DNA of 64,000 bases from Giardia intestinalis (lineage: Eukaryota): assembly GCA_000002435.2 (NCBI GenBank), contig CM018791.1, one strand, 5' to 3'. The notes beneath the pieces are model-generated. The model ran no database searches and was not told where the DNA came from. It saw only the letters and a list, made by a program, of their open reading frames with translations. Made by a program: the position numbers and the translations under genes. Below are positions 6,801-44,700 of this stretch, piece after piece (position 1 is the first letter of the stretch; each line of letters begins with the position of its first letter).

Positions 6801-6888
6801 TACGCTCTACAGAGTACCACGTGCTCTCACTACCCTCCTCAATGGCGTGTCGAACCGTGTAGCGATTGGCGAAGGCAATGCGCAACAT
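3868..6888 (-). CDS. NEK-type kinase-like domain (probable pseudokinase) + S/N-rich linker + ~12 C-terminal ankyrin repeats
   Basis: N-terminal domain retains the APE (TAPEVF) and DIWSLGC subdomain motifs, but lacks the GxGxxG loop, has HYRTLTPAS in place of HRDLKPxN and DTS in place of DFG. C-terminus has repeated G.TALM.AA...G ankyrin units. Confidence 0.8.
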   Translation of the reverse strand: MLRIAFANRYTVRHAIEEGSESTWYSVERKNDGLPFSCREYSVRHLDSGYNGFDHASIKELLSIVHPYMLRVMEIIYDQEVQKVYVVTELNSHNNLRYMIDAYWKSREQIGEGTIIRIIGELAEALKYYHTGVRPGMLPSTPNHYRTLTPASVLVTKDGVYKIDTSRIEHILDPGYMAKASAKSVYTAPEVFEGANPSERSDIWSLGCITYELATLQAFVKNPTAEDARTQVQAVLPNLRLPGYSREFADLIRRMLCIDPRSRASVTYICGLEPVVNIMTEFGYKQMAPENRDRYQEDSGSFAQKWRESFRASQVGPTERKFKNAAEDTGTGMNASQMSMRIQQNLDANSADNRERAAYMTDNVGMYSLSVDDLISSHSNVPGVRNEPVTRSSLTPGAAVATTLYAAPTYSREATRIISSRVDSMRTGAELPGNTSINNGLSPSFRNLLEMNSASHNYDNSIDDTSPIYNQNDGSVRATNDAQGAADTDITGMYRDELAYRRRQSGGNTSGNRSSLSKVVGDTEAYDGKDSSFRANNRDNSLFRSDQIDSTVEQLDHVIAQKNEQGRFPGVPVQTRTAKMINIGQGIQSTLYPGQAEGITSSKILNSTYFPNFPGQIAQFRAAYDSRITPEDENMHITDPDGTTPLMKAVIRDDMRLVQKYLPTQCRIANDRGVTALMLAAYFDNFDAIQLLLDKESKTQDSAGMTALMYAAHKGNTNSVVQLYTHEARMVTGKGVTALMIAAECGWVDIVRTLMPREARLRDDFGNTALIYACKAGRASVVQELLEYEAGLKNNDEWTALMISAKMGFAQITNLLLERECKFQTKAGLTALMIAAANNRPDIANTLLKDEACMRDLHEETAMMKAAALGAYDVVKVLIDSEGGSRRPDGKTALMCAADAGYADIVGSLMNRESRMRKNDGTTALMYATERGHTECVRLLVETEKCIQRQNGETALMIAVCRGLVDCVKILADHEIGVSLPDGTSVMDIASQTGNQEVIKCLRAYV

Positions 6889-9426: not shown

Positions 9427-9509
9427 CTTCCAGAACACCAGGATGCAATCAGAAAAAGATAGTGATTTTACAATGCACACGGAGGCCTCCCACAGGGGTC
9501 TACGCGTGG

Positions 9510-10631
9510 CTAGACAAGAAACATGTTTGTGTCGGACATGGAGCGCCTGTAGGTATCTACGTTCACCTCTTGTGACCTGGGAAAGCCGTAGAAGATGTAG
9601 TTGTCGGAGACGTAGCTCAAGTAGCTACCGTTGTTTGTGCACATCAGGTGCAGCTCTGCAAGATCGAGGCTGCTGTTCTTCTCTATCACCATGCACCTCT
9701 CCCAACTGAGGGTCTTTGCAAATTCCCTGGCCTCCTCGTCAGACTCGAACCTCTTGGAAATCGGCAGCGATGGGCTGCTGCCTTTCCTCCTGCGCGATGA
9801 GCCGCCATCCTTCTGGCCACTTTCGTCGCTTTCTGACTTCCTGTTCTTCTTGTTACCTCTCCTGCCATCCGACGGAGTAGCAAATTCCACGGTGACGGAT
9901 CCTTTGCCTGGGGAAGCCTGAGGAGTCTTCTTCTTCTTGACACTGCTCTTCTCAGATAGAGTATTCCCCGCAGGAGACCCGCTAGCTGCTCCGTGCTCGC
10001 CTGTTTGTCTGGACTTGGCGTTAGACTTGGGCTTTGACTGCTGGGCCTTGATATCTTTCATAGCGAAGCAGTGATAGCAGTAGACAGGAGCGCGTTTGCA
10101 GATGTCACTCCACGTAACATCGCACGTGTCCGACACGGTCGGCGCGTCAGGGAATTCAGTCACAAGTTCCACGTACCGGCCGGCAAAGACTGTGGAGATA
10201 TCTTCGTAGATGCACTCGGCGGGTCGGTCTGACCCGGCTGACAGCTCGGAGCCGTAAAGCTCATAGAATCGATTGTACACTGAATGGATATCTATGGGGC
10301 CTATACCTATCTTTTTTAACTTGTCCCGAAGCGCACCGCAATCTTTTTCAGCAACATAAATTGGAATAAATCTCCCGTCTGAATTCTTGAAAAGGGCATC
10401 AGAAAGGGTAGCTGGCACGATATTATCACCTACAGCGATCAGAAACAGCTTGTTACCTTGCAAAAGCTGTAAAACGATGCCTTTGTCTGATGAAGAAGAC
10501 ACCCTAAGAAATTTAAAATTTATATCAGTAGGTGCTTCGTCCTTAGGGAACTCATCCAGCAGATATGTGTATATGGTAACATGCTCCCAAGGGCTAGATC
10601 CGTAACGAAACGTCTTGCCCACCTCGTACAT
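9510..10631 (-). CDS. hypothetical protein (373 aa) with central basic/Ser-rich low-complexity linker
   Basis: ATG-initiated ORF; N- and C-terminal globular-looking segments separated by a KKKK...RRRKGSS basic stretch. Confidence 0.55.
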   Translation of the reverse strand: MYEVGKTFRYGSSPWEHVTIYTYLLDEFPKDEAPTDINFKFLRVSSSSDKGIVLQLLQGNKLFLIAVGDNIVPATLSDALFKNSDGRFIPIYVAEKDCGALRDKLKKIGIGPIDIHSVYNRFYELYGSELSAGSDRPAECIYEDISTVFAGRYVELVTEFPDAPTVSDTCDVTWSDICKRAPVYCYHCFAMKDIKAQQSKPKSNAKSRQTGEHGAASGSPAGNTLSEKSSVKKKKTPQASPGKGSVTVEFATPSDGRRGNKKNRKSESDESGQKDGGSSRRRKGSSPSLPISKRFESDEEAREFAKTLSWERCMVIEKNSSLDLAELHLMCTNNGSYLSYVSDNYIFYGFPRSQEVNVDTYRRSMSDTNMFLV

Positions 10632-10775
10632 ACACTTTTAAATTTACCCCTTTTAATTTAGATTTATCTAGGTTCATTAGTCCGAGTCAAACTTACAACA
10701 ATGTTGCATACTGCCTGATTTGACTCTAGGTAGTGATTCTAGGTGGGTGCCCACGCACACATGCATACCACCTCG

Positions 10776-12824
10776 CTAAGCAATGCGTCTGCCCTGAACA
10801 TTACTTCTCTCACGGAACTGGGCGGCAGCCTGAGCACGCCGCTCACTGGAGAAAGCTTCTCCAAGCATCTTCTTTTGTGCCCGCCTTTCCCGCTTTATTT
10901 GCTTCGTGAGAGCCTTACGTTCTGCCCGTTCCGTACTGGTCTCATTGCTTCGTGTAGAAGGAAGAACATGGGGTCTGTACTGCTCGTCACTGCTGTGAGA
11001 ATCCACCTGAGACGGCGCTTGATTGTCGGATGCTCCTCTGCACTCCTCGTTCTCCTCGTGAACCACAGGAAGTGGATGAGAGCCTTTAGTTAGAGAGGTG
11101 ATGGGGATCCCACGCTTAGATAGAACGATCCTGACTGGCGCTTTGTCGGCTTCCATCTGCATGCTCTTGTCATCTGCCTTCCCAATATAATGAAGATTTC
11201 CCGCATCGTCTTCGATGGTGGGCTTCCGCTGTGCCTCAAGCTTCTGCCTTCCATAGCCCAGCTTATTCCAACTACAACGAATATATGCACGCGCGACCTG
11301 GCCAGACATAATGCAATCCACTAAGCCATTAACGATCTCCTCGTTGTCCATCATGTTCGTTCCCAAATACTTATCTAAGCCGCGATTGACATCATCTTCC
11401 ATGTTGCGGAGATTCTCTAACGACGCTTGCTGTATCGACTCTTCGGTAAGAAGAGCCAATTTTTGTGCATTAGTTACACACGGTTCTATTTGATCAACCT
11501 GTGAGCTACGCCCTTCTTGCATGTGAACAATTTTTTCGTTTGCAACGGTCATCATACGATTAAGCTCAGTATCCATAGAGTCTCCAGAAGTAAAGTGCCT
11601 TTGATTCATGTGTCTCCCCCTTCTCATCTGCACCGAGCTACCGACCGATTTAGCGGACAGCTTGGACAGATCTGTATATCCCCCTACGCTTGATAACCTG
11701 GAAAGCCTTGTGCGTCGAGAGATGGTTGATTTGCCGTCATCGAGACTATCAATATCCACTTCATCACCATAAACTATGCGATCTTCCTCTTCCTTAGTTG
11801 GAAGGCACGCCAGTCCACGGATACTATCCAGTGTAGCTCTATTCAGAGCAGCGGAGTTGCTCGTGATGTTAGCATTGAAGAAGTCGAGTGCCTCCTTAGC
11901 TTCATTTTCGTCTTCCTCTAGCCCAAGCGCGAGGCCAAAACCTTTGGTATGATCACTTTCTTCATTGTCGTGAGTATTTTTTAGAGCTCTGTCTTCTTCG
12001 GTGAACTCAAATCCCTCTAGGTCTGCATTTGTGAGGGTGGATTCGTCGGGAAACAGTGACTCCACAAGGACTCTTTTGACTGCTTCACTGGCTGCAACCA
12101 CGCGTGTTGTACCAATCATGTATGTTTTGCTTACAAATTCCTTTTGGTCATCCTGGGGTCTGGTCAGATCAAGAACAGTCTCGTGCTTGTTTGTATAGCT
12201 ACTCCAGTTGCTTAGATCGTCTCCTCTCAGTGTCTTCTCTGCTGAGATGAGCTCTGCTGCGGTGCCTGCCTCCTTGAACGAGTCAAACTCTGTGTTCATG
12301 ATTGCCTCCAGTTCTTCATCTAATTGATCCAACTCGCCTGCACTGATATCGTCTACCAGGCGCTTGCTTTGTTCATTCATCGCTTCATCACTCTCAGTGT
12401 GTTCTTCTACGGATTCAAGTAAATGCTCCACATCTTCTTCGCTCATGCACTCTTCTTCGACTATCAGTGATTCATCTTTTGGGTCAAGCTCTTTCGGTAC
12501 AACGTGATGCTGATGTGTTGTGCGCTTTGACGGAGTCTTGTCCACCACAAGAATACCGTCGTAATTTATCAGCGTTTCATCTGTAGAATCTCCATCCATT
12601 AGCTCCCCAGAGTATGGCATATCATTAGATGGTACCACAGGGGCAGACTCTGCCTCTCCAAGTATGAACATGTCATTGTGCCTTCGCTCCTCAAGGCCAT
12701 TTATGTACAGTTTCTCTCCGCCATGGTTGTGATTTTCTACTTCCTTGAGTGCGACCATCATTCTACCATCCTCTGAGATGATGTTCATGACATTGAAGAC
12801 GCGCTTCGCCTTCTTTGACTGCAT
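10776..12824 (-). CDS. hypothetical acidic protein (682 aa), largely low-complexity D/E-rich, basic C-terminal tail
   Basis: ATG-initiated ORF; long acidic tracts (EEECMSEEDVEHLLESVEEHTESDE...); basic K/R-rich last ~60 aa. Confidence 0.55.
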   Translation of the reverse strand: MQSKKAKRVFNVMNIISEDGRMMVALKEVENHNHGGEKLYINGLEERRHNDMFILGEAESAPVVPSNDMPYSGELMDGDSTDETLINYDGILVVDKTPSKRTTHQHHVVPKELDPKDESLIVEEECMSEEDVEHLLESVEEHTESDEAMNEQSKRLVDDISAGELDQLDEELEAIMNTEFDSFKEAGTAAELISAEKTLRGDDLSNWSSYTNKHETVLDLTRPQDDQKEFVSKTYMIGTTRVVAASEAVKRVLVESLFPDESTLTNADLEGFEFTEEDRALKNTHDNEESDHTKGFGLALGLEEDENEAKEALDFFNANITSNSAALNRATLDSIRGLACLPTKEEEDRIVYGDEVDIDSLDDGKSTISRRTRLSRLSSVGGYTDLSKLSAKSVGSSVQMRRGRHMNQRHFTSGDSMDTELNRMMTVANEKIVHMQEGRSSQVDQIEPCVTNAQKLALLTEESIQQASLENLRNMEDDVNRGLDKYLGTNMMDNEEIVNGLVDCIMSGQVARAYIRCSWNKLGYGRQKLEAQRKPTIEDDAGNLHYIGKADDKSMQMEADKAPVRIVLSKRGIPITSLTKGSHPLPVVHEENEECRGASDNQAPSQVDSHSSDEQYRPHVLPSTRSNETSTERAERKALTKQIKRERRAQKKMLGEAFSSERRAQAAAQFRERSNVQGRRIA

Positions 12825-23097: not shown

Positions 23098-23904
23098 ATG
23101 TCTGTCTCACACTTAGCCCCGGAGTCGGCCAACCCGCAATGTGTGGATGACGTGTGTCTTAATTTGGTAGCATGCAAGAGCACACCGCATGATCGTGATA
23201 TTATGGAGCCGCAACTAAAGCATTTTACCGGTATCACAGACCCCTCTGCCTCACAGAAAACATTCTCGCTGTCCAAGCTTTGCGGGGAGCAGATTACAGG
23301 TACGCAAAAGGAAACTAAAGAAGATGAGGTGGCATCGACGCAGCAGACCCTGGTAATGTCCTGGAGATATGACAGCGATCCTCCGAAAATAACACGTAAG
23401 GAGATAGAGGACGCATTTAAAGCGCTCTCTATCGACACTTCTGTGACGGGGACAAGGGAATTCCAACATAAAATTTACATAGACTGCCTAACAAGGGTGA
23501 CCAAGCCACAGTTTGGGCCGATATGTCGCTACTTTGAGAGTTTGCACAAAAACACCCAGTTCTTCATGAGATATGATAAAGTGAACGACGAGGAGCAGGC
23601 GACTGTGTTCTTGGGAAACGTTCTTGGCCTCACTGCAAACGATCTGGCTAAATCCATCGAGCAAAGGCTTGGATTCATCCCCAAAGCTATTCGAATACCT
23701 ATTAACAAGCACACTGAAAAGCCTAAGCCAGTCGCATACGTGGTCTGTGATTCACGCGATCAAGCCAAAGAGCTGGCAGAAAACCTACGGGGCGAAAAGC
23801 TCGGTCTGTCCAGTGGCATCCGCACCGATCTGCTGGTTCACGAGGGCGAGTCCCGTGTAACTCTCAAGCCTAGGAAGCAACACAGTAAGTCTAAGACATC
23901 TTAG
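23098..23904 (+). CDS. hypothetical protein with RRM-like C-terminal half
   Basis: Segment ATVFLGNV...KPVAYVVCDSRDQAKELAENLRGEKLG resembles RNP2/RNP1 of an RNA-recognition motif. Confidence 0.4.
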   Translation: MSVSHLAPESANPQCVDDVCLNLVACKSTPHDRDIMEPQLKHFTGITDPSASQKTFSLSKLCGEQITGTQKETKEDEVASTQQTLVMSWRYDSDPPKITRKEIEDAFKALSIDTSVTGTREFQHKIYIDCLTRVTKPQFGPICRYFESLHKNTQFFMRYDKVNDEEQATVFLGNVLGLTANDLAKSIEQRLGFIPKAIRIPINKHTEKPKPVAYVVCDSRDQAKELAENLRGEKLGLSSGIRTDLLVHEGESRVTLKPRKQHSKSKTS

Positions 23905-24193
23905 ATTCAGATTCTAACTTGTTGCACACCTGTGCAAAAAAGTCGTCGGTGAACTGCTGACTCTGAGACATAAGCAAGCCCTCGATGGTAGGATACCCTA
24001 TCTGCGTTGCATGCTCTGGGGGACTGAGCACCTTGAACCCGGCTTCAGATAAATGAATGGTGAGAAGGACCCCGTGGAGCTTCAAAGTAAATGTAGCCGC
24101 AGTGGAGCTATGATCTAAGACGTTGACAAGCTCAAAGTCTCCAGCCGCAGAGCGTGATCGTATATACTCTAATTCCTCCTTGACCATAAGCAT
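23891..24193 (-). CDS. small hypothetical protein (100 aa)
   Basis: ATG-initiated ORF filling the gap between two genes; non-repetitive composition. Confidence 0.35.
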   Translation of the reverse strand: MLMVKEELEYIRSRSAAGDFELVNVLDHSSTAATFTLKLHGVLLTIHLSEAGFKVLSPPEHATQIGYPTIEGLLMSQSQQFTDDFFAQVCNKLESESKMS

Positions 24194-24250: not shown

Positions 24251-27200
24251 CTAATATGTGGGGCTATTGAAGTCTTCATTGCTTCCCAGCATCGTACTCT
24301 TGGCTCTGCTGCTCTGCTGCTTTCCCTTACGATGCTGACTCCGTATCATGAGATTCAAGGCCTTGACATCTTTATTTAACCGGACCCACAGAACGAGTGC
24401 CATAGTGTTCAGCGCCACAGCAAAGGCCGCGGCAACGGAGAAGGTGATAATGTACGTGGTGTTGTAGTCCTGGGATTGGATTGTGATGCTGGGGATGAAC
24501 CCCGAGTGTATACTAGTGTTAGTGACGCCGTCTATGGTGAGGCCCACGAGGGCTGTCTTCTTTTTGTTCCACAATTCGGCAAGGACTCTCTGGCAGCTCA
24601 TTCCAGCGTACTCCGTGCCAAAACCAGGCACCCAGTCTGTTTCGCATGAGAACCTGAGCACGTCTGTATCTCTGCTGAAGGTGCCTTGCTTTGCGAGCTT
24701 CCCCATTGAAAGGAGCATGGAGGAGTTGGTGTATATCTCGGCAGTGATCATATAGACGAGGGCGCCGGCCTCATTCAGACGGGTACTTGACACGTTGACA
24801 AGGTCGACTCCCTGCCAGATGGCGGCCTGCTCCAGGGTAGGGATGCTGCAATCCTTGGCCCCAGACTCTTGGAGGCGCAGGCTGAGGACTGTGGGTTCCA
24901 CTATGACTACGGTTCCGTTATAGCACCCAAGGTTGTATGTTACGTAATAGAAAGTAGACCGAATCATCCCGTTTCCAGAGGTGTCCATACTATCGTAAAA
25001 GGTGATGCGCACGTACCCATTCAACTTCTTCACAGTGCTAGTTGATACATTAGCAAAGAAACTGCGGCAACTGTCGGGGTGCACTGTCTTGTGATACCCT
25101 GTTCCACACAAAAACGGGATTGAAGCTGTCGACGTATAGGAAAAAGATGGAAAGGGTCTTTCTAAGACTATGGAATCGCTCGTTCTTTCATCCCTGACAA
25201 CCGCTGTTAACACAATTTGCTTAGTGGTGGGAGGAATAGAGCACAAGTGACTATTGATAGTATCATATCCTTTCATTACTGTGAAGACACTAATAGGTGA
25301 AATGACAACGCTGAACTCCTGTATGCAGTCCTCCATGTAGGTTGTTCGCAGGCTTGATAGTTCCACATCTACGTTTGCCTCCACTTCATCAATAATAAGC
25401 TGCAAAGACAATGTACCAGTCAACCAACTGACAGTAAAGTAGCTGTTGATACGACTAGCTAAGGCTGTATCGCGTTCATCGAGGGAGGCGCAATATGTTA
25501 ACTTTGAACTGGATATGGCTTCCACGGGTAGAGAGTATCTGTCATCTCGAGAAGTTAGATTATCGTTAAAATGAACAATAAGGGTGGATTGCACAATCTG
25601 GTTAGTAGATAAATAGGGGCATGCTTGGTTCCATGATAACCGAGCACATAACTGCGTGGTAGTTTCTTCCAGGGATTTGATATACTGAATACTGGAACCT
25701 TTGCTTATAAAGCAAGTATCATAGTCATACTTATCAAGAAGTATGTCACTTATAATAGTTGGCATGATATGCGTCGCTGACTCTATGGAAACAGAAGCGG
25801 ACGTGCTTGTTATCATCGCCAGCTTGCAGCTCTGCAAGGAGCTGGGATTACATGCGAGCCTTATCATGTTTGTATTTGAGAAACTAAAGTCGGATAGAGT
25901 CTGCACTATGGTGTCTTCGTAATCTGATAGGTTGAGTCGGACAATGGCCGTCGTGGAAAACGCTGCCCTGCACTCGGCAGTGTTTCTGGGACGCACGTTT
26001 AAAGTGAATGATAGGTTTTCATAGTTTGCTTGCAAGCTGATGTCCTCGCACCAGCATCCTTTTATCTCTGCCAAAACGGGGGCGTCCGCTCGCCGCACGC
26101 ATCTGTGGGTCTCCTGGTCGCACACGCTCAGTAGCGGGCAGTCGCTGTCGATGATGCAGCCAGCTTTGCACAGGTTGCCGCCGGCACAGGTCATAGAGAT
26201 CTGGTTCAGGGGAGATGTGGCTTGGGCAGCCAGCTGCTGAGTATTGTAATTGGCGTTACTCTCGAAAACACTGGGGTCCAAGGGCTTATTGTTTGTGCCT
26301 GTCCTCATTGGATCGCAGGGACTGTCGCTGTTTTTGGAGTCACATGTCAGATAGCAGAATCCGTCATCCAGGCCCTTGGTGTAACCATCTTGGCACGTCT
26401 CGGTCTTGAAGCGACACACCCCATCCAGTGCACACAGGGAAGGGTGTGGGCAGGCAACGCTCTTGCATTGGTAGTTGCAGGTTCCCTCGAAGGAGCACAG
26501 CCGGCCGCCCGTGCAATCCACGTCGCTGACGCAGACAGCCATGCAGTGGAGGCCTATGCAGGACAGTTTTGGGGTTTCTGTGCAGTCAGTATCACTACTA
26601 CACTTCTTAAAGCAAGAGCCGTAGAGGCATTCTTCCTTGTCCTGGCACTTGCTGCATTGATTGCGGCAGATACCGTCAGCCCCGCAAACCTGATCTGCAG
26701 AGCAATCGGTGCTACACTTCCAGACACAGGTGCCCGTGCTTGACGAGGTGGAGATGTTGCAGGTTTGTGAGGAAGAACAGTCAGCGTCATCCTTGCACCC
26801 GTCTTTGCAGTGCCCATTAAGACACGCCTCTCCAGTGATAACGCTGCAGTCCGCATTGAAGTAGCAGACCTTTTCGCAGTCTCCTGCGAGCGAGCACATG
26901 TAGCCACTGGGGCAGTCGGTGGCCTGGGCGCACTTCTGCCTGCAGACGCCGTTCCAGCAGTGAAGCCTCCCCTCTGATAAGCACTCCTTGGATTCCGTGC
27001 ATGTCCTGAAGCAAGACTCGTCTCTACAGACGGAGCCAGTGGGACAGTCGGTGTCACTAGCACATGTCTGGCGACAGATGCCGTCTATTCCGCAAGAGGT
27101 TTGGCCTGCACAAGACCCTGTGCAGCTCCAGCCACAAACTCCTTCAGCAGAACCAGAGGTGATGCAGCGCTGATTGTTTCCGCATCCCTGATCATTAGTA

Positions 27201-27463
27201 CATCTCATGGAACAGTGCCCATTGGTGCACTTCTGGCCTGCAGGGTAAATGCACGTGCCCTGGTGAGAGCATTTTTGCTGACATTTATTACTTGAACAAG
27301 CGACTATACCTGATGGTAGTGCTAAACTGGTTGAACATTCAGCATCATTGGAACACGATATTTGCTTTATATCTTCAACAACAGAGATAGCAGTATGTAG
27401 GTCACATAGTGCTGTGGTAATTGTAGTTAATAAGACAAGCAATCCGTAGATCACTGCATGCAT
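24251..27463 (-). CDS. high-cysteine membrane protein (HCMP-type, VSP-like Cys repeats but no CRGKA tail), bipartite ectodomain
   Basis: Signal peptide MHAVIYGLLVLLTTITTALC; ~480 aa of repeated C.TDCP.G..C / CxxC modules; then ~550 aa Cys-poor S/T-rich region; single TM (IITFSVAAAFAVALNTMALVLWV) and ~50-aa cytoplasmic tail. Confidence 0.8.
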   Translation of the reverse strand: MHAVIYGLLVLLTTITTALCDLHTAISVVEDIKQISCSNDAECSTSLALPSGIVACSSNKCQQKCSHQGTCIYPAGQKCTNGHCSMRCTNDQGCGNNQRCITSGSAEGVCGWSCTGSCAGQTSCGIDGICRQTCASDTDCPTGSVCRDESCFRTCTESKECLSEGRLHCWNGVCRQKCAQATDCPSGYMCSLAGDCEKVCYFNADCSVITGEACLNGHCKDGCKDDADCSSSQTCNISTSSSTGTCVWKCSTDCSADQVCGADGICRNQCSKCQDKEECLYGSCFKKCSSDTDCTETPKLSCIGLHCMAVCVSDVDCTGGRLCSFEGTCNYQCKSVACPHPSLCALDGVCRFKTETCQDGYTKGLDDGFCYLTCDSKNSDSPCDPMRTGTNNKPLDPSVFESNANYNTQQLAAQATSPLNQISMTCAGGNLCKAGCIIDSDCPLLSVCDQETHRCVRRADAPVLAEIKGCWCEDISLQANYENLSFTLNVRPRNTAECRAAFSTTAIVRLNLSDYEDTIVQTLSDFSFSNTNMIRLACNPSSLQSCKLAMITSTSASVSIESATHIMPTIISDILLDKYDYDTCFISKGSSIQYIKSLEETTTQLCARLSWNQACPYLSTNQIVQSTLIVHFNDNLTSRDDRYSLPVEAISSSKLTYCASLDERDTALASRINSYFTVSWLTGTLSLQLIIDEVEANVDVELSSLRTTYMEDCIQEFSVVISPISVFTVMKGYDTINSHLCSIPPTTKQIVLTAVVRDERTSDSIVLERPFPSFSYTSTASIPFLCGTGYHKTVHPDSCRSFFANVSTSTVKKLNGYVRITFYDSMDTSGNGMIRSTFYYVTYNLGCYNGTVVIVEPTVLSLRLQESGAKDCSIPTLEQAAIWQGVDLVNVSSTRLNEAGALVYMITAEIYTNSSMLLSMGKLAKQGTFSRDTDVLRFSCETDWVPGFGTEYAGMSCQRVLAELWNKKKTALVGLTIDGVTNTSIHSGFIPSITIQSQDYNTTYIITFSVAAAFAVALNTMALVLWVRLNKDVKALNLMIRSQHRKGKQQSSRAKSTMLGSNEDFNSPTY

Positions 27464-27612
27464 AGTTTCGTTATGGCAACTTGCAAAAACACTGTCTCAG
27501 TTGTTATAAGTAAAAATATACTTGTGAGAGCCAAAGCTTTCAATTTTTTGATCTCATTTCAGTCCCTAGGTCCTGCACATCATAAGGTAGCCCGTCAGGC
27601 AATTGTGGCAGT

Positions 27613-30120
27613 ATGATTGCTTCGGCCTTCCTCCTCCTTTTCTATGCCAACACTCTTGCCCAGAATATCGGGCAAGATTTTTCTATCCTGGTAACTGCCA
27701 ATACTCCCACAGATGTTTCGCTAACCTTTAAAGAGGCCCTTCCAAACCTTGTTCCTATTCACAACAGCATCAGCATCGCATCTACTGTCCCTGTATCGGT
27801 TGTAATTCTTATGCTGGATTCCAATGACGAAAGCATTTACACTAAGACTGTTGAAGGAACAGCGATCTTTGAGTACAACATTTATCTGGAGCAGACAGGT
27901 GCATACAATCTTCGGCTGACCTCAAATGTCACGACCACACTTAAGGTGCTTGTTGAGCCCTTGCATCAGGAGTACCTTGGAGCAATTAATATTAGATCAA
28001 ACGAGCGTGTAGTTTACATCAAGGAGTTCTTGACGCTGGAGTCTGCAACCATCCTCTTAACGCATATACCCTCGGGGGTGACTGTGCACTACACTGTCTG
28101 CAACGGGGCTCCATCGAACCCTGTCCTGAGTCCCGGAGTGTGCAGCTCCTCTGCAAAGGTTGTTGCAAGTGACGGACAGGCGCTATTCTTCTTCCACGCA
28201 AAGACCGTGTTTCCAATCAGTGAACAGGTCGGCTCCAATATATGGTTATACACTTTCGAGTTTGATTTACCCAACCCCCTGACGGAAGCTGCTGCAGGCT
28301 CCATCACCTTCCTTAGTGTGAGAAAGCTAGACAGCGATACTGTGACCAACATCACATACCCTCTGCAGCTCGATGGTGAGTTCGTTTCCATTTCAGCCTT
28401 CGACTCCATCTCTGTTGTGTATAAAAATGATGTTCTTGTCACCCCGCAGCTTCTCCTTGAAGTATCTCTGCCATCTGAGTTTGTTATTACCAATATTTGT
28501 GTAAGCCATATCTCACCCTTTAACAACTGCGCGCCCGTGAAGACTGACTCTGCGTCTGTAAAGTTATCCATACCACTACCTGATTTTAAGCCAAGTACCC
28601 TCTACTACTTAGCCGTCTTTTGTGTGCTGACAAGTGACCAGCGCGAAAGCACCGTGGGGATCACCTCAGTGAAGCTAACAATGGCTACAGAAATAGAGCC
28701 AACGCCCATTGACTCCACATCTCCGGCTGCGTATAAGATGCTATGGTATGATGACACCGTCTATGATAAGCTTTTCTCTCCTTCACGACAAATTCACTTA
28801 AAACTCACAATCCCGAACACAGGGCTTCTTTTCGAGGGAGCTGATATCTATGTTGACTATCATCCTGCTACTCCCACAGAGATAGACGCTGACGGCCTTT
28901 GTCGGTATTCCACGAGGATAACGTCTGCTGATACTCAGACCATTTACTACTATGACATTCTTCACAATATGCACATGTATAAGGCTAGACCGGGAACATA
29001 CTACATTATCCTACATCCACACCTGATGTGCCTGAATACAGGGAAGATGTCGGTTCTGGAAGCCACCGTCTTCATCAAGATGTTCTCGACTAAAACGACT
29101 TTCAATCAAACGCAGTTAATAGAACGACATCAGCTCACAGTTGGGCTACTCTTTAGCCCTGCAGCCAGGCCCCTTGACCAAGTTGCAGACCCCTTGAAAC
29201 TAAACTTGTCACCGTTCCTGATACCATTCTCGGCAATAGCGGCAACAGAGGAGCTGACCCTATTCTACAACAGAGAATACGCAGATGACAACACCATTTG
29301 CTTCGAGCTGGCTCTGGGATCCCATGTCGATTTGCTTATCTCTGAAGTGACCAGGTACACTACCTTTGCTACCAACCAATCTGTGTACATTAAAAGCCTA
29401 AGCATAAAACCCAACTGTTTCAGCGTCTCAAAGAGCGCCACTAACACGCTGAGTGATAGTGCCCTGAGTACCGTTTTGAAACTCCAGATACACTCCACTA
29501 ATACGCTAAGCACTACAGCGCCTAGCGCCACCCTCTTCTGTGTCTACTCCTTACCAGCTGTCATTAAGGAATATATAATAATGCCAGCTAATCCTGCCTT
29601 TAGTGTCGTTTTCCCGGATAAATCCAAAATGGTGATGAGTTTTAGAGCCCTTTCGTCGCTTGTCTCTAACGTTAAAATAAAATACAGCATATTTATCATT
29701 CCAGTGGGAAGAGAAAATATCAATCCGGTGCCAACAACCTTTTGTGGCGTTCTTACAGCCATCACGCATGCATTAAATCCGGCCTGGAGGCAGCCTATTT
29801 TCAATTTGACTAGCAGTGTTGAGAAGCAAGACTATATTATTGCAAACATTCCTCTTTCACAGTTCCCCATAGGGACAAACCCCCTTACTCAGGAGTACAA
29901 CGCCTTTGTAATTGTAGAGGATGTTCTGGCAGGGACAACCGGTCTTTATATCAGCAGCAGGATCAAGTATGCTAAGATTAAGTTAACCAAACCAATTGTC
30001 ATTCAGTTGGGTATATCCTGTTCTATTATTATTCTCTCTGTGATAGGAATTATTATTACGGCCATCTTTTGCGGGCGCATGCTTAACGTGCATTACAGAC
30101 AAAAGCGCGTATTAGTGTGA
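27613..30120 (+). CDS. type-I membrane/surface protein, hypothetical (835 aa)
   Basis: N-terminal signal peptide MIASAFLLLFYANTLAQ; large S/T-rich ectodomain with many NxS/T; C-terminal TM IVIQLGISCSIIILSVIGIIITAIF and short basic tail. Confidence 0.65.
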   Translation: MIASAFLLLFYANTLAQNIGQDFSILVTANTPTDVSLTFKEALPNLVPIHNSISIASTVPVSVVILMLDSNDESIYTKTVEGTAIFEYNIYLEQTGAYNLRLTSNVTTTLKVLVEPLHQEYLGAINIRSNERVVYIKEFLTLESATILLTHIPSGVTVHYTVCNGAPSNPVLSPGVCSSSAKVVASDGQALFFFHAKTVFPISEQVGSNIWLYTFEFDLPNPLTEAAAGSITFLSVRKLDSDTVTNITYPLQLDGEFVSISAFDSISVVYKNDVLVTPQLLLEVSLPSEFVITNICVSHISPFNNCAPVKTDSASVKLSIPLPDFKPSTLYYLAVFCVLTSDQRESTVGITSVKLTMATEIEPTPIDSTSPAAYKMLWYDDTVYDKLFSPSRQIHLKLTIPNTGLLFEGADIYVDYHPATPTEIDADGLCRYSTRITSADTQTIYYYDILHNMHMYKARPGTYYIILHPHLMCLNTGKMSVLEATVFIKMFSTKTTFNQTQLIERHQLTVGLLFSPAARPLDQVADPLKLNLSPFLIPFSAIAATEELTLFYNREYADDNTICFELALGSHVDLLISEVTRYTTFATNQSVYIKSLSIKPNCFSVSKSATNTLSDSALSTVLKLQIHSTNTLSTTAPSATLFCVYSLPAVIKEYIIMPANPAFSVVFPDKSKMVMSFRALSSLVSNVKIKYSIFIIPVGRENINPVPTTFCGVLTAITHALNPAWRQPIFNLTSSVEKQDYIIANIPLSQFPIGTNPLTQEYNAFVIVEDVLAGTTGLYISSRIKYAKIKLTKPIVIQLGISCSIIILSVIGIIITAIFCGRMLNVHYRQKRVLV

Positions 30121-35787: not shown

Positions 35788-38700
35788 ATGGTGGTTTTTG
35801 CGGGACCCTTATCGGACTTGACTGTTATCTTTATCTCTCTTAGCGCCGTTCTACTATTTGGAGCCACTATTTACGCCTTGTACTTTATAATCCCCATTTT
35901 GTTGGCGAAGCTTATCCAAGCCATAGCAAATGTATACTTTCGTCTTTATACAAAAGGGTATCGAAAAGCCCGTGTACATGTCTCTTATTTTCGGTTGGGT
36001 CTTTTCATGCGTCGAATACACTTGCAGAGCGTTTACTTCTCAACAGCAGAGTACACTATATTCGTGGGAGATGTGCACCTTCACTTTTCTCTTCTCCGCA
36101 GGTCTGGTTTTCTCAGCAAGGTCCTCCAGGAACACATCATCAAATCGCAGACTAAAGATGCCCACAGCTTAACATTTCCTCTTTTCCCAGCGATGGTGCA
36201 CGTCACAGGGATCGATATACACCTGTACAGCCGAAAGCCCCTGCCCTATACGCCAACAGAGGAAGGTCTGCGACGATATATGGAGGAATACCAAAGCAAG
36301 CTAGCAAACGCAGCTGCACAGCGTAAGCTTCCTTTCTTCTTTAGAGTTTTTGGGCCTGTCAATTTGGATATTAGGGGTATACGTCTGGTACTGAGCAATC
36401 CATACCTTCGATGCGGTGTACGGGCTACAATTGGTTCAGCAAACGGAGTGCTTGGTGTCCACCAGGAAGCTGAGCTCTTCACATTCTATACATCTTACCT
36501 TGATCTCAAACTTCATAGCTTTAACGTTAATTTTATCGAAAATGAATTTTACAATCCAATCTTTGATCACAAGCGTCAGAACTTCTTTGAGAAAAAATCA
36601 TGCCTACCACTGTACAGTGGAAAGAACTCTTTGTCAGTTTCGATTCTATCTTCTCCGGTATCTCGCTTAACAGTCACCACAACCTCTGATCTTTCAAAGG
36701 TTTCTTTTCGACCTGGCCTTCACTCTTCCCAAGATAGGTCAGAAATCTACGATAAGTCGTTTCCCGAAGGAATTGTGTCCATCCGTTTGATTGATCCAAA
36801 AATAACCTATTCACCATGGCTTGAGCGGGAGAGGAGACGAGTCTTTTTGTCATTCTTTCCTGAGACATTTTTGCCCCGTCAGGTGTGGCCTCTTCCGTCC
36901 AACGAGGAGCTATTTTTTAGACCCACGTTAAACTACAAGATTTCCGTGATATTTGATACGCCAGGCACAATTCAGTATTGGTATCGTAATACAGATCAAC
37001 CGTATGATCCAGTGAAACATGACATTATACTGGCGTGGAAGAGGGCTCAGATGGAGTCGGCTAGGGTCTCTCAGCAGCTGCATGAATTCAAGGCCAACAG
37101 TACGATTAGTTGTGATAACAATACTTATACTGCTCAGTCCATTGTTGGTGATAGTGTGATAAATCAGGGTACTGTGCCAACTGGAGGTGCCACCAGCATG
37201 GACGATGGAGACTGCACGGAGTGTAGTACGGCGTATTCTATGTGCCCTATTACCACTTCTCCGATTAACTCTCCAGTAGAAGAAGCTCATGCTTTACTAA
37301 GCGGAAACTATTCAGCATCTGTGGCTCAGCTCCAGCCGGCACATAGTCGCAAAGGGTCCAATCTCTCTTCTCATGTGCGGATGACATCTTCCACCACATC
37401 CAAAGTTGTTCTAGATAGCATTGCAGGACTATCAAAGCGTCTTCGTACGAATATACAAGGGTCTCCCTTAATAGGGAGCGCTGTAGATGACTTTGAGGCT
37501 TTAGCGCACCGTAATAACCAGTTTCAAAGTGTTGCTAATCTGCAAACGGCCGTTTTCAACGACGACTTATTTGCTCAGTTTAACGTGGACTCAAGCACGC
37601 TTCAAATGGACAACTTTGAGGAACCCACGTGTAATCCTCAAAGCTCCAAGGACGAAGACCAGGCGCCTGAAGCTCAGACCCTTAGGCGGCCTCGCACACT
37701 ATGGTCCAATGTGTTTGGCAATACTATTCCTTTTGTTAATAGATTTATTCGATCCTCAACCTCTAAAGGTGAGCAGGAGTTCAATATCTTTGATAGCTCT
37801 GCTGGGGACAAAGATGCTACCAGTGCAGCACCTCCGCCCACCGTAGGAGCATATACATCCCCCCACGAAGGTATCTCCTTTACTTGCTCTACTGGCACCG
37901 TTATTCTTCTAAAGATGCCCGTCTTTTCGTACTTTCCTACGCGCACTAAAAAGATCAGCGCTTTCATACCTCATGTTTCAGCCAAGACAACGGTCATTGG
38001 GCAAGAATTTTTTGTCGCAGAGAACATCTCCTTTGTCTGGGATGAGCTTACGACAGGTACAGAGTATTCCGCTCCGACTAAGTGGAATGTCGGCTTTTTT
38101 GCAGAGAATCTTCGAGCGGAGCTAACTGGGGCTATAATTTCTCAGATTACGCACTTGCTTGGAGACCTCACAGAAGATGACAAGGACCTCCTTTCCTATT
38201 ATCGTAAGTCCCTTATTCCACTGATCGACAATAACACTGTTATCCTGGCACACGAGTTCCCTATAAGGGATAGGGCATATAACGTTTATTGCAATGCACC
38301 ACCAAACCGTCTGCAGACCATGAGGGAGGTCCAGTATTCCAAGACAAAGCGCTTTATCCCTGTAGAGATGGACTTTACCATCCGTGTAGTCAACTATGAG
38401 ATTGGTGTTGCCACAGCTGTCGACAACGTCTGCTCGTCATTACACCATCTCTCTGCGGTACAGCCTGTTCAGGATTTCCTCGTTCATAAATATTCTGTCG
38501 CGTATCACCGCTTATACTGTCAACACAAGATGTTAGCCGAGCATGACTTCAAGGAACTTCGACTGGTGTCTGCCCACCACTATGTTTACCATAATAATCC
38601 GTTTCTAAATATGTTCTGGCGCCTGCCTCTAGTTATTGGCGCCTCAAATCGTAGCATCTACTGTCTGCTCGATCTTACCATAGATGTCATCAACAATGAC

Positions 38701-41700
38701 TATGAGCAGGTGGCCAATATGCTTCATAAGGGAGATCCCATATCGAAGGATGTCCGTCCAAACCTTGTCTGGCTCAACACGCCATACAATGTGGCAGCAT
38801 CTTCGACTACTCGAAAGCGGCGATGCACATGTCTGCGGAGCAGGAAGAAAGGTCTGCGTACATTACCGCCGGTATCTGGGATAACACAGGAAACTGACAA
38901 TCTTCTTCCGTTAAAAGAAGGCTACACTCATTCGCGCTATCAGAGTACACACGGTTACGAGATTCTTGAGTCTAATACTAAGTCAGGGAAGAAAGGATCT
39001 AAATCCTACGATGAACTAAGTCTCGTTCCAGCATCTGTGCATTCTGGAACAAAATTGAGCTCTCTGCATGTACTACAGTTGCCACATACTGCGTCTTGGG
39101 ACACTCTAGGGACGTCCTCAACTAGTCTTCAACAGACTCCATATCCATGCACTGTTGACGAGTTTCTCAAGGCCTTTCTTTATGAAAGCCCAGATGCCAT
39201 AGATCATTGTGACCATAGAATAGAGCTTTTGAGAATAGCAAACGGCAAGAAGCATGCTAATTCCAACCCACTCACATATGAAGAGTATCTGTCATTGCTA
39301 ACATATTCTCCGCCAACTCATTCACGCCTCTTGTTTGCTGGTGTAGACCTGTCCTGCGGAATTGCCGTCCCACGCTTGCATAATCTCAATGCCTGTATTG
39401 ATGGAGGCACGGATGCCAAGGCACAGTTATACACCGTCCTAGATGTCAAATTGATCTTGAAAATGGCGTCGATCTATGTGGCTTGCACATCCACAAGCAG
39501 GCAGAGCGCCTTTCTTAAGAGGCTATATTCAGCGAAGAAGACTACTAACAAATCATTAACATCTCCTTTTGCTTCTGGCCCGTTACCCCGTACAGAACTT
39601 CGCATAGGAATGACACGAGATCTTGTTTTAGATGCACACTTGGATACACGTGTCACAAGCTTTCTAAAAGAATCGGTACAGACACCACCATCTCAGATCA
39701 TTGACTCGTCAGTTTCTCCAAGCCTATCATACCCACAGGATAATAACCTGTCTCTCCAAATCAACGTAGCTCGGCCGGAGCTTCTTGTTAGCGGTTCAGT
39801 AATAGCCATATTTATGCATTTCCTGGAGAATCTGTTTTTGGCCCAAAGGTTTCCAATCTCTGATGCAGACTATATTATTATGCCCTTTAATTTACACTTT
39901 AAGAATCAACTTGCAAGAGCCTATGAGTCATATTATCTTTACCATCGCTTGAAAGCAAGCTATGCTAACGACCTATGGCTCGACTCAATTAAGCGTGCTG
40001 TCAAAGATAGTCCAGAAGTTGATCCCGTGGAGCGCCTCACAGATAGAGACATACTGATCAGATTGTCACACGAGTTTGTGCTAAGTGATCAAATGACGTA
40101 CTCGGATGTTATCTATCCTGTATCTAAGGCAGCCACTCTTTACCAACGATTCTCGCATTATATCACGTCTATGCGGCTCTTTTTAACTATCTATGCAGAT
40201 AGACCCATTGTATCAGTTACTGTTCACGAGTTTGCCGAGCTGCCACGTAGATTTTCATTTGCATATAACGATTTAAACACGGATTATAACAGACTCTTTA
40301 CTACGTCTCTCTCTGATCCACGGGGACTTATTACGTTCCACACACAAAAGCTGACATTTGCAATCGTCTCTTCCCGGTCTGTCACAACCCTCTCTGTCAG
40401 CACAACTCCGCTCCGAGGAGGATACCTGTCTCATGCACACTCTACTATCACTACAGGAGGCTTCGATATGCACGTCACTATGCCAAAAACACAGGACAGC
40501 ATCTACCCCTTGCCCACCAGAACGGCCTACTCAATGACCTTGAGCGCCCTCAAATTGTCTGCCTATCCTGAGTTCGTTGGGGTTCTTACCATGTTGATAA
40601 GGAACTTCTGTGTAACGTTTTTGGCTCCGTCATTTAATCACCTTCCTGCGTCATTCGTTGATCATAGTGCGGTCGGCAGTGATCATGAAAGTGCAGCTGA
40701 CGTAGATCATGGTAAGGTTTATGATAGAATTAGGCAGATGATAGCAGAGCGTATGCAGAAGGATTTAGAGCTTCTCACCAACAAATCGAATTTCTTGTTG
40801 CTTTGCAATTATCTCGAGGACTTGAACGACAGTGATCACACGGCGGTTTTGCACAGACTGTACACGAGGGGACCGTCAGCCACGCAAGCAAGACTAGATC
40901 AGGACTCATTTCTCTTAGATACAAGGACAGACTCATCGGGAAATCCCACTCAGAATAATAAGACAACCAACCGTCCTGATCTCACTTGCTCTGCCATATC
41001 ATCCTCCTCATTACCACTAGATAGTGTCATGTATGCACGCTGTCCAGACCGACTTCGCTATCTGCTCTTCTACAATGGATCTAATTGGTGCTTGACTGCG
41101 ACTCAAGTGGTCTCCTTTGACATATCTATTGGTCAATTTGATTGCTCATTGATTCACACTTTCTCGTCTAATTCTGCTTGCTCTACTCCTACGTCCCTGG
41201 TAGCCTCAGTTATCTCTAAGCGTGGGGTTGCTTGTTACATTAATAACCATGCACTAAAGGACAACACGCGGCTCCTTCTCAGATGCACTGTACCAGACAT
41301 CATTTTACGATTACGCGATCCTTTTTCCCAATCCACCTCTGTAGCTCTAAAGACAGCGGTGAACATAGTGGTGCATCAGACAGGGGACAACGCTGTCGGC
41401 AAGGCTGTCCAGTTGCTCTACTATGAACACCATAAGCATCTCCTCAGCACATTACTGTCTGGCCCTCGAGCGCAGACATCGGTGACGTCCATTCCGACCA
41501 TTGTAGTTTCACATGATAACGAGCTAACTTGCGCTAGTAGGCCCAAACCAATTTCGGGTTCACAAGAAGGTGTCCTGCCTGTGTTCAAGTCAACTACAAA
41601 TTACTGTCACCATGCCCCTGCATGCACCGCGACAGAATTCACTAGGCCTAGCTCTTTGAAGGCTTCGCCGGCAGAACAGTATCCATTACCTGCTGAATTA

Positions 41701-44700
41701 GAAGATCTTCTTCGAAAGGAGAAAGGAGACAACGCGCTGAATGATACTGTCCTACGCCGTGCTATGTATTTGCAATTCGTAGCACCCGGGACGACTCATT
41801 CCCAAAAACGCTTTTCAAGACAGCGAACTTCTGTCAAAACGGCTTCTGCATCGAGCATAACGCTTTACAGTACAGAGACAGACACTTACAACGAGGGAGG
41901 CCCTGATCTGGCTCAAGGAAGCACACGTCTTTCTAGAACTATGATAGCGACCAATGTTACCGATGACTTCTCCCTGTATAGCACTGAGACAACAGTACCA
42001 AGTGTGCAAGGAAAGGCAGACAGTACAGACCAAGCTAGTTATGATGAAACTAGTGATAGCATACTTCTTCCGGATGAGTCCCCATCCAGAGCATTTGTCA
42101 ATAAGACTAAAGAGTCTCTCTGGCAGCGTCAAGCACAGAAGACTGACAATACCGAGCCTTCCTGTCCCCCACCCGTTTCTGTGGATAAGCTCGCAGGAAT
42201 AGAAGAGGAACCATTTCCATTTCTCATTCCAGCCCATCTATTTCATAGCATACTTGATCACCGAATGGTTGCTGTCTACACCAGTGCCTTCTCCTCCTTT
42301 TCTCAGGATAGTCATGCGCCCTCAGGACTAACTCTTCGACCAAAATCTGGCCCCTATATGAGTGTGGATAGAGGGCCCCATCAATCTAAACCTGTTTATA
42401 ACCCAACAAACTTACCTGTGGACATGCATATTCCAACCTCAGGACCTGCTGCCGTTAGTGTTTCAATAACTGTTGAGGGACTGCGAACTTATATCAAGCC
42501 AGAGGGAATCTATGGTGCACTCTTGCTTGTTAGTCAGATACTCAGTCCAGACTTCACGGTAGTAGCCAATGCATATACATTTTTAACCGCAGAATCGAAC
42601 AAGTGTATGCTTGACGTCAAAAACATTTACTTATGCGAAACGATGCTGCGAACCTGTTACTATGCGCATCTTAAGCAGTTTATAGCTGAGCAAAAGCCGT
42701 CCCGATTTCAATACATTTCTAATTTAATGTACTCACAAGGGCAATTGGATTTATCTCAGACAGGAAAGAAGGATGGACAGGAGATGAAAAGCAATTTAAC
42801 TCCGCCAGAACACAAACAAGATAGAAAGGATAAGGAAGACAACTTAGACAGGATATGTGCTTTCATCACTCTTATAGCTTCGCAGTCACAGCTTCTTTCG
42901 TCCCTGAGCATGTCCCATTTTGGACGAGCTACCCATCATCAGCTAGAAACGACACTCATGCAGATGGATGGAACGGCAACACACTGGTATCTCCTCTTTG
43001 CGCCACAAGTAGAGCAATATAAACTTACTAGTAAGGAGATGATAACACTCGAGGTTTTCCTGAAAGATGCTGAGGTAGTTGCACTGGCAGACGGCCTCCG
43101 GACCAGCGTTACCCTGCGGATGAGTCAGCTATCTTCAGCGTTTGCGCTCAGCAATAAGATCTATTCATTTAATAACCGTGCCTACAAAATGTTTTGCCGT
43201 CTATCCGACAGATTCTGTCCACAAACCAATATGAACAAATTCCGGATACAGACAGGGGCGCTTCTATCTCTTAAAGCTAACAACCTTACTCTTGAGACCA
43301 TTAGAGGAGCGCTCTGTACCATCCAGGGTGTATCTCTTAAGCTAAATTGCGGAATCTTCTTCTCCCAAGGAAATAGGGCTGCTTCTACTGGATCACGGTC
43401 GTCAAGTCTTTATTTGAACACCAAGAAAAACCCCATGAAGATTGATGTTGCAACTATGCGTACAGATAGGAGTGCCAAGATAGACACTGATAGTGTGCAA
43501 ACCGCTCACCGCCTGTATTCTCATACATCCACAGAAGCTACAGAGACAACCGATAAAAGCGCCACCTCTCAGAAGGGCATGGATGCGTTCCTCAAGATGC
43601 TTCTGAATACACTCTGTGTCGAGGCAAACACCGTTACTCTCAATATTCCTATTATGCTTCTGCAGCCGCTTGTCATCTTACTTGCTCACTACGTGGGGTC
43701 TTTCCAGAGGGGGATGGAAGCTATTGTCTTATCAACTGTAATAGCACAGCTAAGCAAGTACATACTTCTCCGGACATTTGTCCCTCAGAGACACCTTGTT
43801 TGGCATGCGCTGAAGCCAACATCCGACATGACTGAGAGTAAGAGCAATCTCGCCTCCAACTTGTATCCCGAGCAATCTAACGCCCACCTAAACAGTTTGC
43901 TTGTAATTCTCAGTCAGAGGGACACAAACGCTAGCTTTGAGGCAATCAGCAAGTCCATCTTCAGCTCCTTTTGCAAGGATCTTAGTAAGGACCCTCTTGT
44001 CAGCCTTGGGTCGCGGGTTATTCGTTGGATGAAGCGCGCAGACTGCAGACATAGGGACGCCGAAGGCGGCAGTCAGTCACTGGGCTCCAAACTAGAGTTC
44101 TCCATTCAGAGCATTTGTCAGAGCCAAAAGTCGTCGTTACCTGTTTACAAGATTAAGATAGACGCTGGTCTTAAGCTGTCTCCTCTTCGTTCTGATGCTA
44201 TTCTCTTTTTGGCTTTGTCCTTGAAGGAGTATAGCGATACACTTTCGTTCTCAAAGGATAGTGTGCCAAAACAGATGATCTTTTGGCAAAGCCCCCATTT
44301 TGAAGCCTTTCGTGTCCCAAAGGAGCCTGTCATACTTTATCTAAACTATATAACTAGACATCTGCTCTTCAACTTCTGGGGTGCAAAGGCACAGGCAGCA
44401 TTGGCTAACTTGCAACAAGGAGCAGGTGAGCCTGTGACGGTTAAGCATATGGTGCAGTTAAGTCTTAGCTTGCACGACGAATTTGCAATTCAAGCGACTA
44501 GTTCTACACACCTTCCGTTTCTTACTGCCTCTGCTTCTAGCCCCCCATGCTTCAAAGCCAGCGTACTAAAGCCAAAGCTACAACTTAGTATCAATGAACG
44601 CCTGTCAGTCACATTAGCATACAAGTCCTTGAACGCCTCATTTAGTCTTCCACTGTTTCTTCTTGCTAATGTATGTAGGTTAAACTCCGCATTTTATGCC

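Follow-up and report, generated by a model that had tools for sequence, protein, structure and literature searches.

Within a 64,000-nucleotide stretch of Giardia intestinalis DNA (contig CM018791.1 of assembly GCA_000002435.2; the whole stretch is called the window in the following) two genes for membrane proteins lie head to head, and we conclude, at a probability of roughly 85%, that the gene on the minus strand encodes GlLRP, a weakly but constitutively expressed endocytic receptor, and that GL50803_8195, on the plus strand, is a syntenic but unrelated neighbour whose position is not evidence for a functional pair. The locus thus holds an annotated and published receptor beside an ordinary neighbour and not a new HCMP pair, as a first-pass annotation made from the sequence had proposed. 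The window can be assigned to chromosome 3 of G. duodenalis WB because the plus-strand protein is 100% identical to GL50803_008195 (XP_001706286.1, "hypothetical protein"). The minus-strand protein agrees with entry GL50803_00113565 of a published Table S1 (XP_001706284.1, chromosome 3, NC_051858.1, "hypothetical protein"; bioRxiv 10.1101/2022.03.07.483299) in length, in its 84 cysteines, in signal peptide, transmembrane domain and 43-residue cytoplasmic tail and in sequence fragments, and a separate published data set also lists GL50803_113565 as a protein of 1070 residues encoded on chromosome 3. XP_001706284.1 is absent from a large protein collection that contains the neighbour XP_001706286.1. 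The best protein matches of 113565 are the WB paralog GL50803_94510, annotated "Tenascin-like protein" (79%), a "Tenascin-X" from isolate P15 (74%) and a fragment from isolate GS (66%). GL50803_14360 and 14047 were discarded as possible fragments of 113565; they comprise 401-402 residues and are located on chromosomes 4 and 5.

GL50803_113565 has been named GlLRP and described as taking up low-density lipoprotein (LDL) as well as chylomicrons and as needed for the uptake of lactoferrin (PMC6115752, PMC6303297). It is reported as a type I receptor that is found in the endoplasmic reticulum, in peripheral vacuoles and at the plasma membrane and that cycles between the latter two in the course of endocytosis, and an FXNPXY-type motif in its tail is reported to bind the mu2 subunit of AP-2 (PMC6115752). 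According to this published mechanism the ectodomain would bind LDL and chylomicrons, the tail would engage AP-2 mu2 and the receptor would cycle to the peripheral vacuoles. The first publication on GlLRP is said to be that of Rivero et al. in 2011, Mol Microbiol 79:1204.

Gene models at the locus are straightforward. The positions and start sites of the two open reading frames (ORFs) on opposite strands had been given correctly, with ATG codons at 27463 and 27613 that are separated by 149 bp (originally 150). Each of the two proteins has a hydrophobic N-terminus and one hydrophobic segment near its C-terminus, and their earlier description as divergently encoded type I proteins with signal peptide and single transmembrane segment is borne out by hydrophobicity and, for the minus-strand protein, by a published Phobius/SignalP table. 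The minus-strand gene is uninterrupted: no stop or frameshift that would split it was found in the WB window, in the P15 ortholog, which also forms a 1070-residue ORF, or in the RefSeq annotation (3213 nucleotides, 1070 residues). Long antisense ORFs over the cysteine-rich half had been ascribed to its wealth of cysteine codons. Such frames are indeed present (a 173-residue antisense ORF at 26222..26743 and a 169-residue ORF in an alternative frame); they are not special to cysteine-richness, as a 160-residue antisense ORF lies within the partner gene too, and spurious ORFs of 160-173 residues occur over both genes.

From the N-terminus, GlLRP would consist of a signal peptide, about 430 residues of four-cysteine modules, four Ig-like units, a short stalk, the transmembrane helix and the 43-residue tail. 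The bipartite nature of the ectodomain noted at first inspection stands, with 68 cysteines in residues 1-470 (14.4%) and 16 in residues 471-1003 (7.85% cysteine overall). The cysteine-rich modules are about 22 residues long and follow the pattern C-x5-C-x5/7-C-x4-C-x3; in residues 1-470 we counted 17 CxxxC motifs, a single CxxC and no CxC, and the sole CXC of the protein (residues 470-472) lies outside the modules. "Dense CxxC" modules had been reported for this region; the repeated motif is CxxxC. The cysteine-rich halves of the four Giardia members of the family described below, GlLRP included, can be aligned at 32-37% identity with a conserved cysteine framework.

The membrane-proximal half had been called nearly free of cysteine and rich in serine and threonine. 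It is poor in cysteine, as stated, but not free of it, and its 16 cysteines are mostly invariant across the family. The enrichment in serine and threonine claimed for both proteins is mild (21% and 19%, versus 13-19% in other proteins of the window). The family alignment features a conserved C-W/Y start and invariant cysteine columns. Comparison by hhalign places unit 1 in register with unit 2 (probability 77%, E 2e-5) and unit 3 in register with unit 4 (probability 48%, E 2e-4). AlphaFold2 gave an unusable model with four close sequences (predicted local distance difference test score, pLDDT, 43.9); with distant relatives added, in a family alignment of 11 sequences, pLDDT rose to 80.9 (predicted TM-score 0.69) and the model features four strand-rich units with one helix each. 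Foldseek matched it in the PDB to tandem Ig, FN3 and macroglobulin arrays (CD109, complement C3, IL-12 receptor, contactin) at E ~1e-10 and 7-10% identity. Residues 466-1000 thus share a fold class with such ectodomains, among them cytokine receptors, contactins, the macroglobulin domains of CD109 and C3 and the SgrA/Fms2 adhesin (5fce), but at 7-13% identity, with their own cysteine pattern and with one helix per unit, so that this is resemblance of fold only. On the basis of this medium-confidence model the cysteine-poor half of GlLRP is predicted to consist of four tandem Ig-like beta-sandwich domains of about 125 residues each, and it would therefore be neither a mucin-like stalk nor a YWTD propeller.

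Searching 1.84e9 representative proteins with a profile of the cysteine-poor half returned eight proteins only, with seven relatives at E 2e-31 to 9e-5 (hmmsearch). One is a GS protein misnamed "Ser/Thr kinase", which is the ortholog of GL50803_8733 (E 2e-31), another is a GL50803_15450-like protein (E 2e-23), and the remainder comprises the GlLRP/94510 cluster and five proteins from SRA or JGI contigs. Used as query in a word-index homology search, the family alignment returned P0003 only. GlLRP possesses the features of the family, i.e. the C-W/Y start, the cysteine columns, four units of about 125 residues, a C-terminal transmembrane segment and a basic tail, and 113565, 94510, 8733 and 15450 form one family. 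The same four proteins correspond to the three "hypothetical" proteins and the sole transmembrane-bearing "tenascin-like" protein of a published CRMP group (bioRxiv 10.1101/2022.03.07.483299). Two of the environmental proteins, P0025 and P0028, comprise nothing but a signal peptide, the module, a transmembrane segment and a basic tail, and the N-terminally incomplete P0026 likewise lacks a cysteine-rich region. As the beta-sandwich array also occurs without the cysteine-rich part, it may well be an autonomous and older module. One of the environmental proteins, with 584 residues and made up of signal peptide, four-unit module and transmembrane segment, lies at 10001..11755 of a Logan contig (L009, from SRR31929897); this contig is compact, intron-poor, eukaryotic and has a GC content of 63%, and similar short forms are present in JGI metagenomes.

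The relationship of GlLRP to its closest paralog is unusual. GL50803_94510 on chromosome 1 has the same architecture and is 94-100% identical to GlLRP over about 660 residues, which fall into residues ~100-580 and 850-1040; it differs in its signal peptide, in units 2 and 3 (about 45% identity), in a tail without FNSPTY and in its neighbourhood, which lacks an 8195-like partner. Proteins and codons of the two loci were compared for WB and P15. Over codons ~98-577 and ~843-1024 the WB paralogs share 94-100% of their nucleotides, with synonymous divergence (dS) of 0.089 and 0.057 for the two segments, and the P15 paralogs are ~100% identical (dS 0.003 and 0.008); the orthologs of WB and P15 are 82-92% identical in the same codons, with dS of 0.52-0.63. 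For the signal peptide with the first ~68 residues, for residues ~586-841 and for the tail, dS between paralogs is saturated (~2.1-2.3 in the cassette of residues ~586-841). Between orthologs dS is ~0.55 throughout, and the ratio of nonsynonymous to synonymous divergence (dN/dS) is 0.12-0.16 in cassette and tail and ~0.3 in the first 68 codons. Because dS between paralogs lies far below that between orthologs in the converted segments, GlLRP and 94510 appear to undergo recent and repeated gene conversion, from which N-terminus, cassette and tail escape. In extent, the escaping cassette of the ectodomain corresponds to beta-sandwich units 2 and 3. These units may carry a paralog-specific function, since they are the only part of the ectodomain that is shielded from conversion and since they are under purifying selection.

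In isolate DH (assemblage A2) the syntenic ortholog of GlLRP (P0009, DHA2_152495) combines the N-terminus and tail of GlLRP with units 2 and 3 that are 98-100% identical to those of 94510, and the two copies of GS resemble each other; either wider conversion or chimeras in draft assemblies may underlie the DH cassette and the likeness in GS. Every short-read (Logan) contig examined breaks inside the GlLRP gene because of the near-identical paralog, and in one such contig all 48 mismatches fall within 25796..27212.

The tail ends in FNSPTY, the published FXNPXY-type motif. Phenylalanine, proline and tyrosine are in place, serine stands where asparagine is expected, such that the canonical Asn-Pro is lacking, and the motif occupies the extreme C-terminus. 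It is found in WB and DH only; P15 has FNSPTC, GS has FTASKH, and the segment is missing in 94510. Both paralogs and all assemblages retain a membrane-proximal RLNKDVKALNL and an h-LGS[NDG] element. Given that assemblages B and E lack the tyrosine motif, AP-2 engagement may not be a general mechanism. Taking domains, conversion and tail together, we offer with odds somewhat short of even the proposal that the membrane-proximal half of GlLRP is a previously undescribed diplomonad-type four-Ig module with a fixed cysteine pattern that predates its fusion to the cysteine-rich part, and that units 2 and 3 form a specificity cassette whose distinctness selection maintains in G. duodenalis against ongoing conversion with 94510; GlLRP would hence be a functional analogue and not a homologue of LDL receptors, and its AP-2 tyrosine motif would be a recent acquisition of assemblage A.

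Several points weigh against this picture of the locus. The exact minus-strand protein was absent from the protein collection searched, and its identity rests on the match to a supplementary table, while the functional statements on GlLRP were drawn from later papers of the same laboratory. The domain, conversion and motif results rest on a medium-confidence model and four genomes; the model was built from only 11 sequences and provides information at fold level only, with TM-scores to multi-domain matches of 0.13-0.26. Finally, assemblages E and B do not retain the tyrosine of FNSPTY, which is awkward for a conserved AP-2 mechanism.

Table. Features of the GlLRP locus and selected neighbours, with positions in the window; aa, amino acids; nt, nucleotides
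Feature	Position	Strand	Basis or remark
GlLRP gene, GL50803_113565 (XP_001706284.1), 1070 aa plus stop	24251..27463	(-)	ORF and match to Table S1
Signal peptide MHAVIYGLLVLLTTITTALC (aa 1-20), paralog-specific	27404..27463	(-)	28-33% identity to 94510 N-terminus
Disulfide-rich region of ~22-aa four-Cys modules (aa 37-465), CxxxC-dominated	26069..27355	(-)	Motif counts and spacing
Predicted beta-sandwich unit 1 (aa 466-579), opens with conserved C-W motif	25727..26068	(-)	Alignments, hhalign, AlphaFold2 model, fold matches
Predicted beta-sandwich unit 2 (aa 580-708)	25340..25726	(-)	hhalign, AlphaFold2 model
Predicted beta-sandwich unit 3 (aa 709-842)	24938..25339	(-)	hhalign, AlphaFold2 model
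Predicted beta-sandwich unit 4 (aa 843-970)	24554..24937	(-)	hhalign versus unit 3 in register, AlphaFold2 model
Paralog-specific cassette, aa ~586-841 (units 2+3)	24941..25708	(-)	WB paralogs 51-63% nt identity, dS ~2.2; P15 pair 60-66%, dS 2.1
Transmembrane helix YIITFSVAAAFAVALNTMALVLWV (aa 1004-1027)	24383..24454	(-)	Hydrophobicity and published table
Cytoplasmic tail, 43 aa	24254..24382	(-)	Last six residues FNSPTY at 24254..24271, published FXNPXY-type AP-2 motif
Divergent intergenic region, 149 bp	27464..27612		Conserved blocks GTAAAAATATACTT at 27510..27523 and TTTCAATTTTTTGA at 27538..27551
GL50803_8195 (XP_001706286.1), hypothetical type I membrane protein, 835 aa	27613..30120	(+)	N-terminal hydrophobic MIASAFLLLFYANTLAQ, 14-aa tail
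GL50803_8195 transmembrane segment (aa 799-821)	30007..30075	(+)	
100-aa GSKIP-domain protein	23891..24193	(-)	
NEK-type kinase with ankyrin repeats	3868..6888	(-)	
Metallophosphoesterase	6973..9480	(-)	
TPR-phosphatase (PP5-like)	55105..56646	(+)	

It could be argued that the family consists mainly of adhesins or host-interaction molecules of a "tenascin-like" nature, for which lipoprotein uptake would be secondary. The annotation of 94510 and the induction of 15450 upon host-cell contact are in line with this idea. We nevertheless consider it improbable, given that published work places GlLRP in endoplasmic reticulum, in peripheral vacuoles and at the plasma membrane as a cycling endocytic receptor (PMC6115752) and given that two secretome supplements list none of 113565, 94510, 8733, 15450 and 8195. 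The secreted tenascins of Giardia (SCRPs, e.g. GL50803_10330, 114815 and 16833) resemble GlLRP in being cysteine-rich and share the name "tenascin-like" with its paralog; they are dominated by CXC motifs, EGF-like, devoid of a transmembrane segment and secreted, none of which applies to GlLRP with its single CXC and its transmembrane helix.

A functional unit of GlLRP and 8195, e.g. of receptor and co-receptor, kept as a divergent pair, is a very unlikely reading. Both are type I membrane proteins, and their head-to-head order is retained in P15 (160 bp spacer) and in two further lineages. In all four Giardia lineages the middle of the spacer keeps two AT-rich blocks (GTAAAAATATACTT and TTTCAATTTTTTGA), with diverged sequence on either side, and these are candidate core-promoter elements. 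However, synteny extends just as well over the entire flanking block, including genes for the GSKIP-domain protein, an RRM protein, a kinase, TrmO, V-ATPase G and UCH, and no 8195-like ORF was found next to other family members. The spacer of 150 bp had been taken as a shared promoter region that suggests co-regulation, but the spacers of other divergent gene pairs in the window measure 5, 32, 447 and 1125 bp, and such a distance is ordinary here. As the whole block is syntenic, as spacers of 5-1125 bp are normal and as other family members lack the partner, the conserved pairing is weak evidence and looks like the ordinary synteny of a compact genome. Selection on the two genes is likewise ordinary and purifying (dN/dS 0.14 for GlLRP and 0.11 for 8195; neighbours 0.03-0.13).

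Nor are the two proteins related to each other. A comparison of their cysteine-poor segments, as suggested in the first-pass annotation, yielded BLASTP E > 2 and an hhalign probability of 0.3%, and in segment-wise hhalign comparisons of 8195 with GlLRP the probability never exceeded 5%. Orthologs of 8195 occur only in Giardia (67-99% identity); the protein has no Pfam match (E<=10), no PDB match and no internal repeats, and its profile found no relatives in JGI metagenomes. It would appear to be a conserved membrane protein that is unrelated to GlLRP and for which no known family was detected.

Expression was compared in the one published data set that covers both genes, namely RNA-seq during contact with Caco-2 cells. 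The log2 fold changes (log2FC) of 8195 are 0.36/0.55/0.66 at an abundance of 7.73 log2 counts per million (logCPM), and 113565 rises at the last time point only (log2FC 0.26, logCPM 6.05). The parallel changes of the two genes are only slight, and the two may still be co-regulated; the roughly 3-fold difference in abundance speaks against a functional unit. In WB clones, stranded RNA-seq gave 12-19 transcripts per million for 113565 in sense and 24-49 in antisense orientation (Table S9, bioRxiv 10.1101/2022.03.07.483299). Here, the antisense signal over GlLRP exceeds the sense signal, which reflects transcription of the plus strand. Among the family members with entries in the host-cell contact data set, GL50803_15450 (chromosome 4) alone is clearly upregulated (log2FC 1.39-1.52).

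The first-pass annotation had seen in the minus-strand gene a VSP/HCMP-type surface protein, possibly induced by encystation or stress and co-regulated with its partner from the 150-bp promoter region. Such a variable or inducible protein is very unlikely. Signal peptide, cysteine-rich ectodomain and single transmembrane segment are common to VSPs, HCMPs/CRMPs and GlLRP, the lack of a CRGKA end on the tail was correctly noted (the tail has 43 and not ~50 residues), the divergent spacer is short and contains two conserved AT-rich blocks, and transcript levels of both genes increase slightly upon contact with host cells, with 15450 up by 1.4-1.5 log2 units. The motifs that define the type speak against it: GlLRP contains a single CXXC over its entire length, lacks GGCY and CRGKA and does not match the Pfam VSP family (PF03302, E<=10), its modules are built on CxxxC and not CxxC, and half of its ectodomain is poor in cysteine. 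Unlike VSPs and HCMPs it is conserved as a single ortholog on which selection is purifying (dN/dS 0.14), and no paralogs of the two genes were found inside the window. Expression of the two genes shifts very little and not at the same times, spacers of 5-1125 bp between divergent genes are usual in the window, and the only encystation series, that of paralog 94510 and not of 113565, falls from 9.9 to 3.5 fragments per kilobase per million, such that induction by encystation or stress is not supported.

HCMPs were reportedly defined by Davids et al. in 2006 by at least 10% cysteine, at least 20 CXXC/CXC motifs, a signal peptide and a transmembrane segment; by this definition 113565, with 7.85% cysteine, one CXXC and one CXC, falls outside the group. 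CRMPs are defined by at least 4% cysteine, at least two CXC/CXXC/CXXXC motifs, a signal peptide, one transmembrane domain and a tail other than CRGKA, and 113565 is listed among 94 of them (bioRxiv 10.1101/2022.03.07.483299). The protein conforms to this class with 7.85% cysteine, 15-17 CXXXC motifs, a signal peptide and one transmembrane domain. When all parts of 113565 and 8195 were compared with Pfam at E<=10, no family was recovered and a chance match to PigN on the transmembrane/tail segment was the only one; LA, EGF and VSP matches were absent from the cysteine-rich regions of the four family members, and PDB sequence searches with the cysteine-rich region and its family profile, the cysteine-poor profile and the 8195 profile gave zero matches.

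Genuine homology of GlLRP with the metazoan LDL-receptor/LRP family, which its name implies, is hardly credible in spite of the published lipoprotein uptake, the AP-2 mu2-binding motif and acidic C-x-[SD]-D-x-D-C stretches that recall LA modules, because no family member matches Ldl_recept_a, Ldl_recept_b or EGF at E up to 1-10, no PDB chain, those of LDLR and LRP included, was matched by sequence, the membrane-proximal half is modelled as four beta-sandwiches and not as a YWTD propeller, and FNSPTY lacks the canonical Asn-Pro and does not occur in assemblages E and B. LA repeats (PF00057) were matched neither in GlLRP nor in four relatives, and a YWTD propeller (PF00058) or EGF domain gave no Pfam match in GlLRP, in which residues 466-1003 are modelled as the four beta-sandwiches. 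GlLRP as published shares with LDLR and LRP1 the nature of a type I endocytic receptor for lipoprotein and lactoferrin with a tyrosine-based C-terminal AP-2 motif; it differs in the absence of LA, EGF and YWTD domains, in a beta-sandwich array in place of the propeller and in having, in assemblage A only, the sequence FNSPTY instead of FxNPxY.

The NEK-type kinase, the metallophosphoesterase, the TPR-phosphatase and the GSKIP-domain protein of the Table are ordinary Giardia neighbours. An uninterrupted ORF of 5730 residues extends over 35788..52980 on the plus strand, with counterparts of 5722 residues in P15 and of 5746 residues in another lineage; its halves gave no Pfam match at E<=0.001.

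Among Giardia receptors, GlLRP alone is named in the literature surveyed as one for receptor-mediated endocytosis of lipoproteins, and it is cited as a relative of LRP. Open-access papers on GlLRP describe it by analogy with LRP1 and make no mention of Ig-like units, of the family or of the conversion mosaic; neither the domain picture, nor the mosaic with 94510, nor the presence of the tyrosine motif in assemblage A alone was found in the literature surveyed, and these three points should be moderately interesting for cell biologists working on Giardia. The AP-2 mechanism may lack generality across Giardia assemblages. Due to the identity of 94-100% over about 660 residues, antisense knock-downs, antibodies and short-read mapping or assemblies can confuse GlLRP with 94510. 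Likewise, the design of ligand-binding and domain-deletion experiments changes, as the ectodomain of GlLRP would be one without LDL-receptor domains, half of which would be a four-unit array that it has in common with three paralogs.

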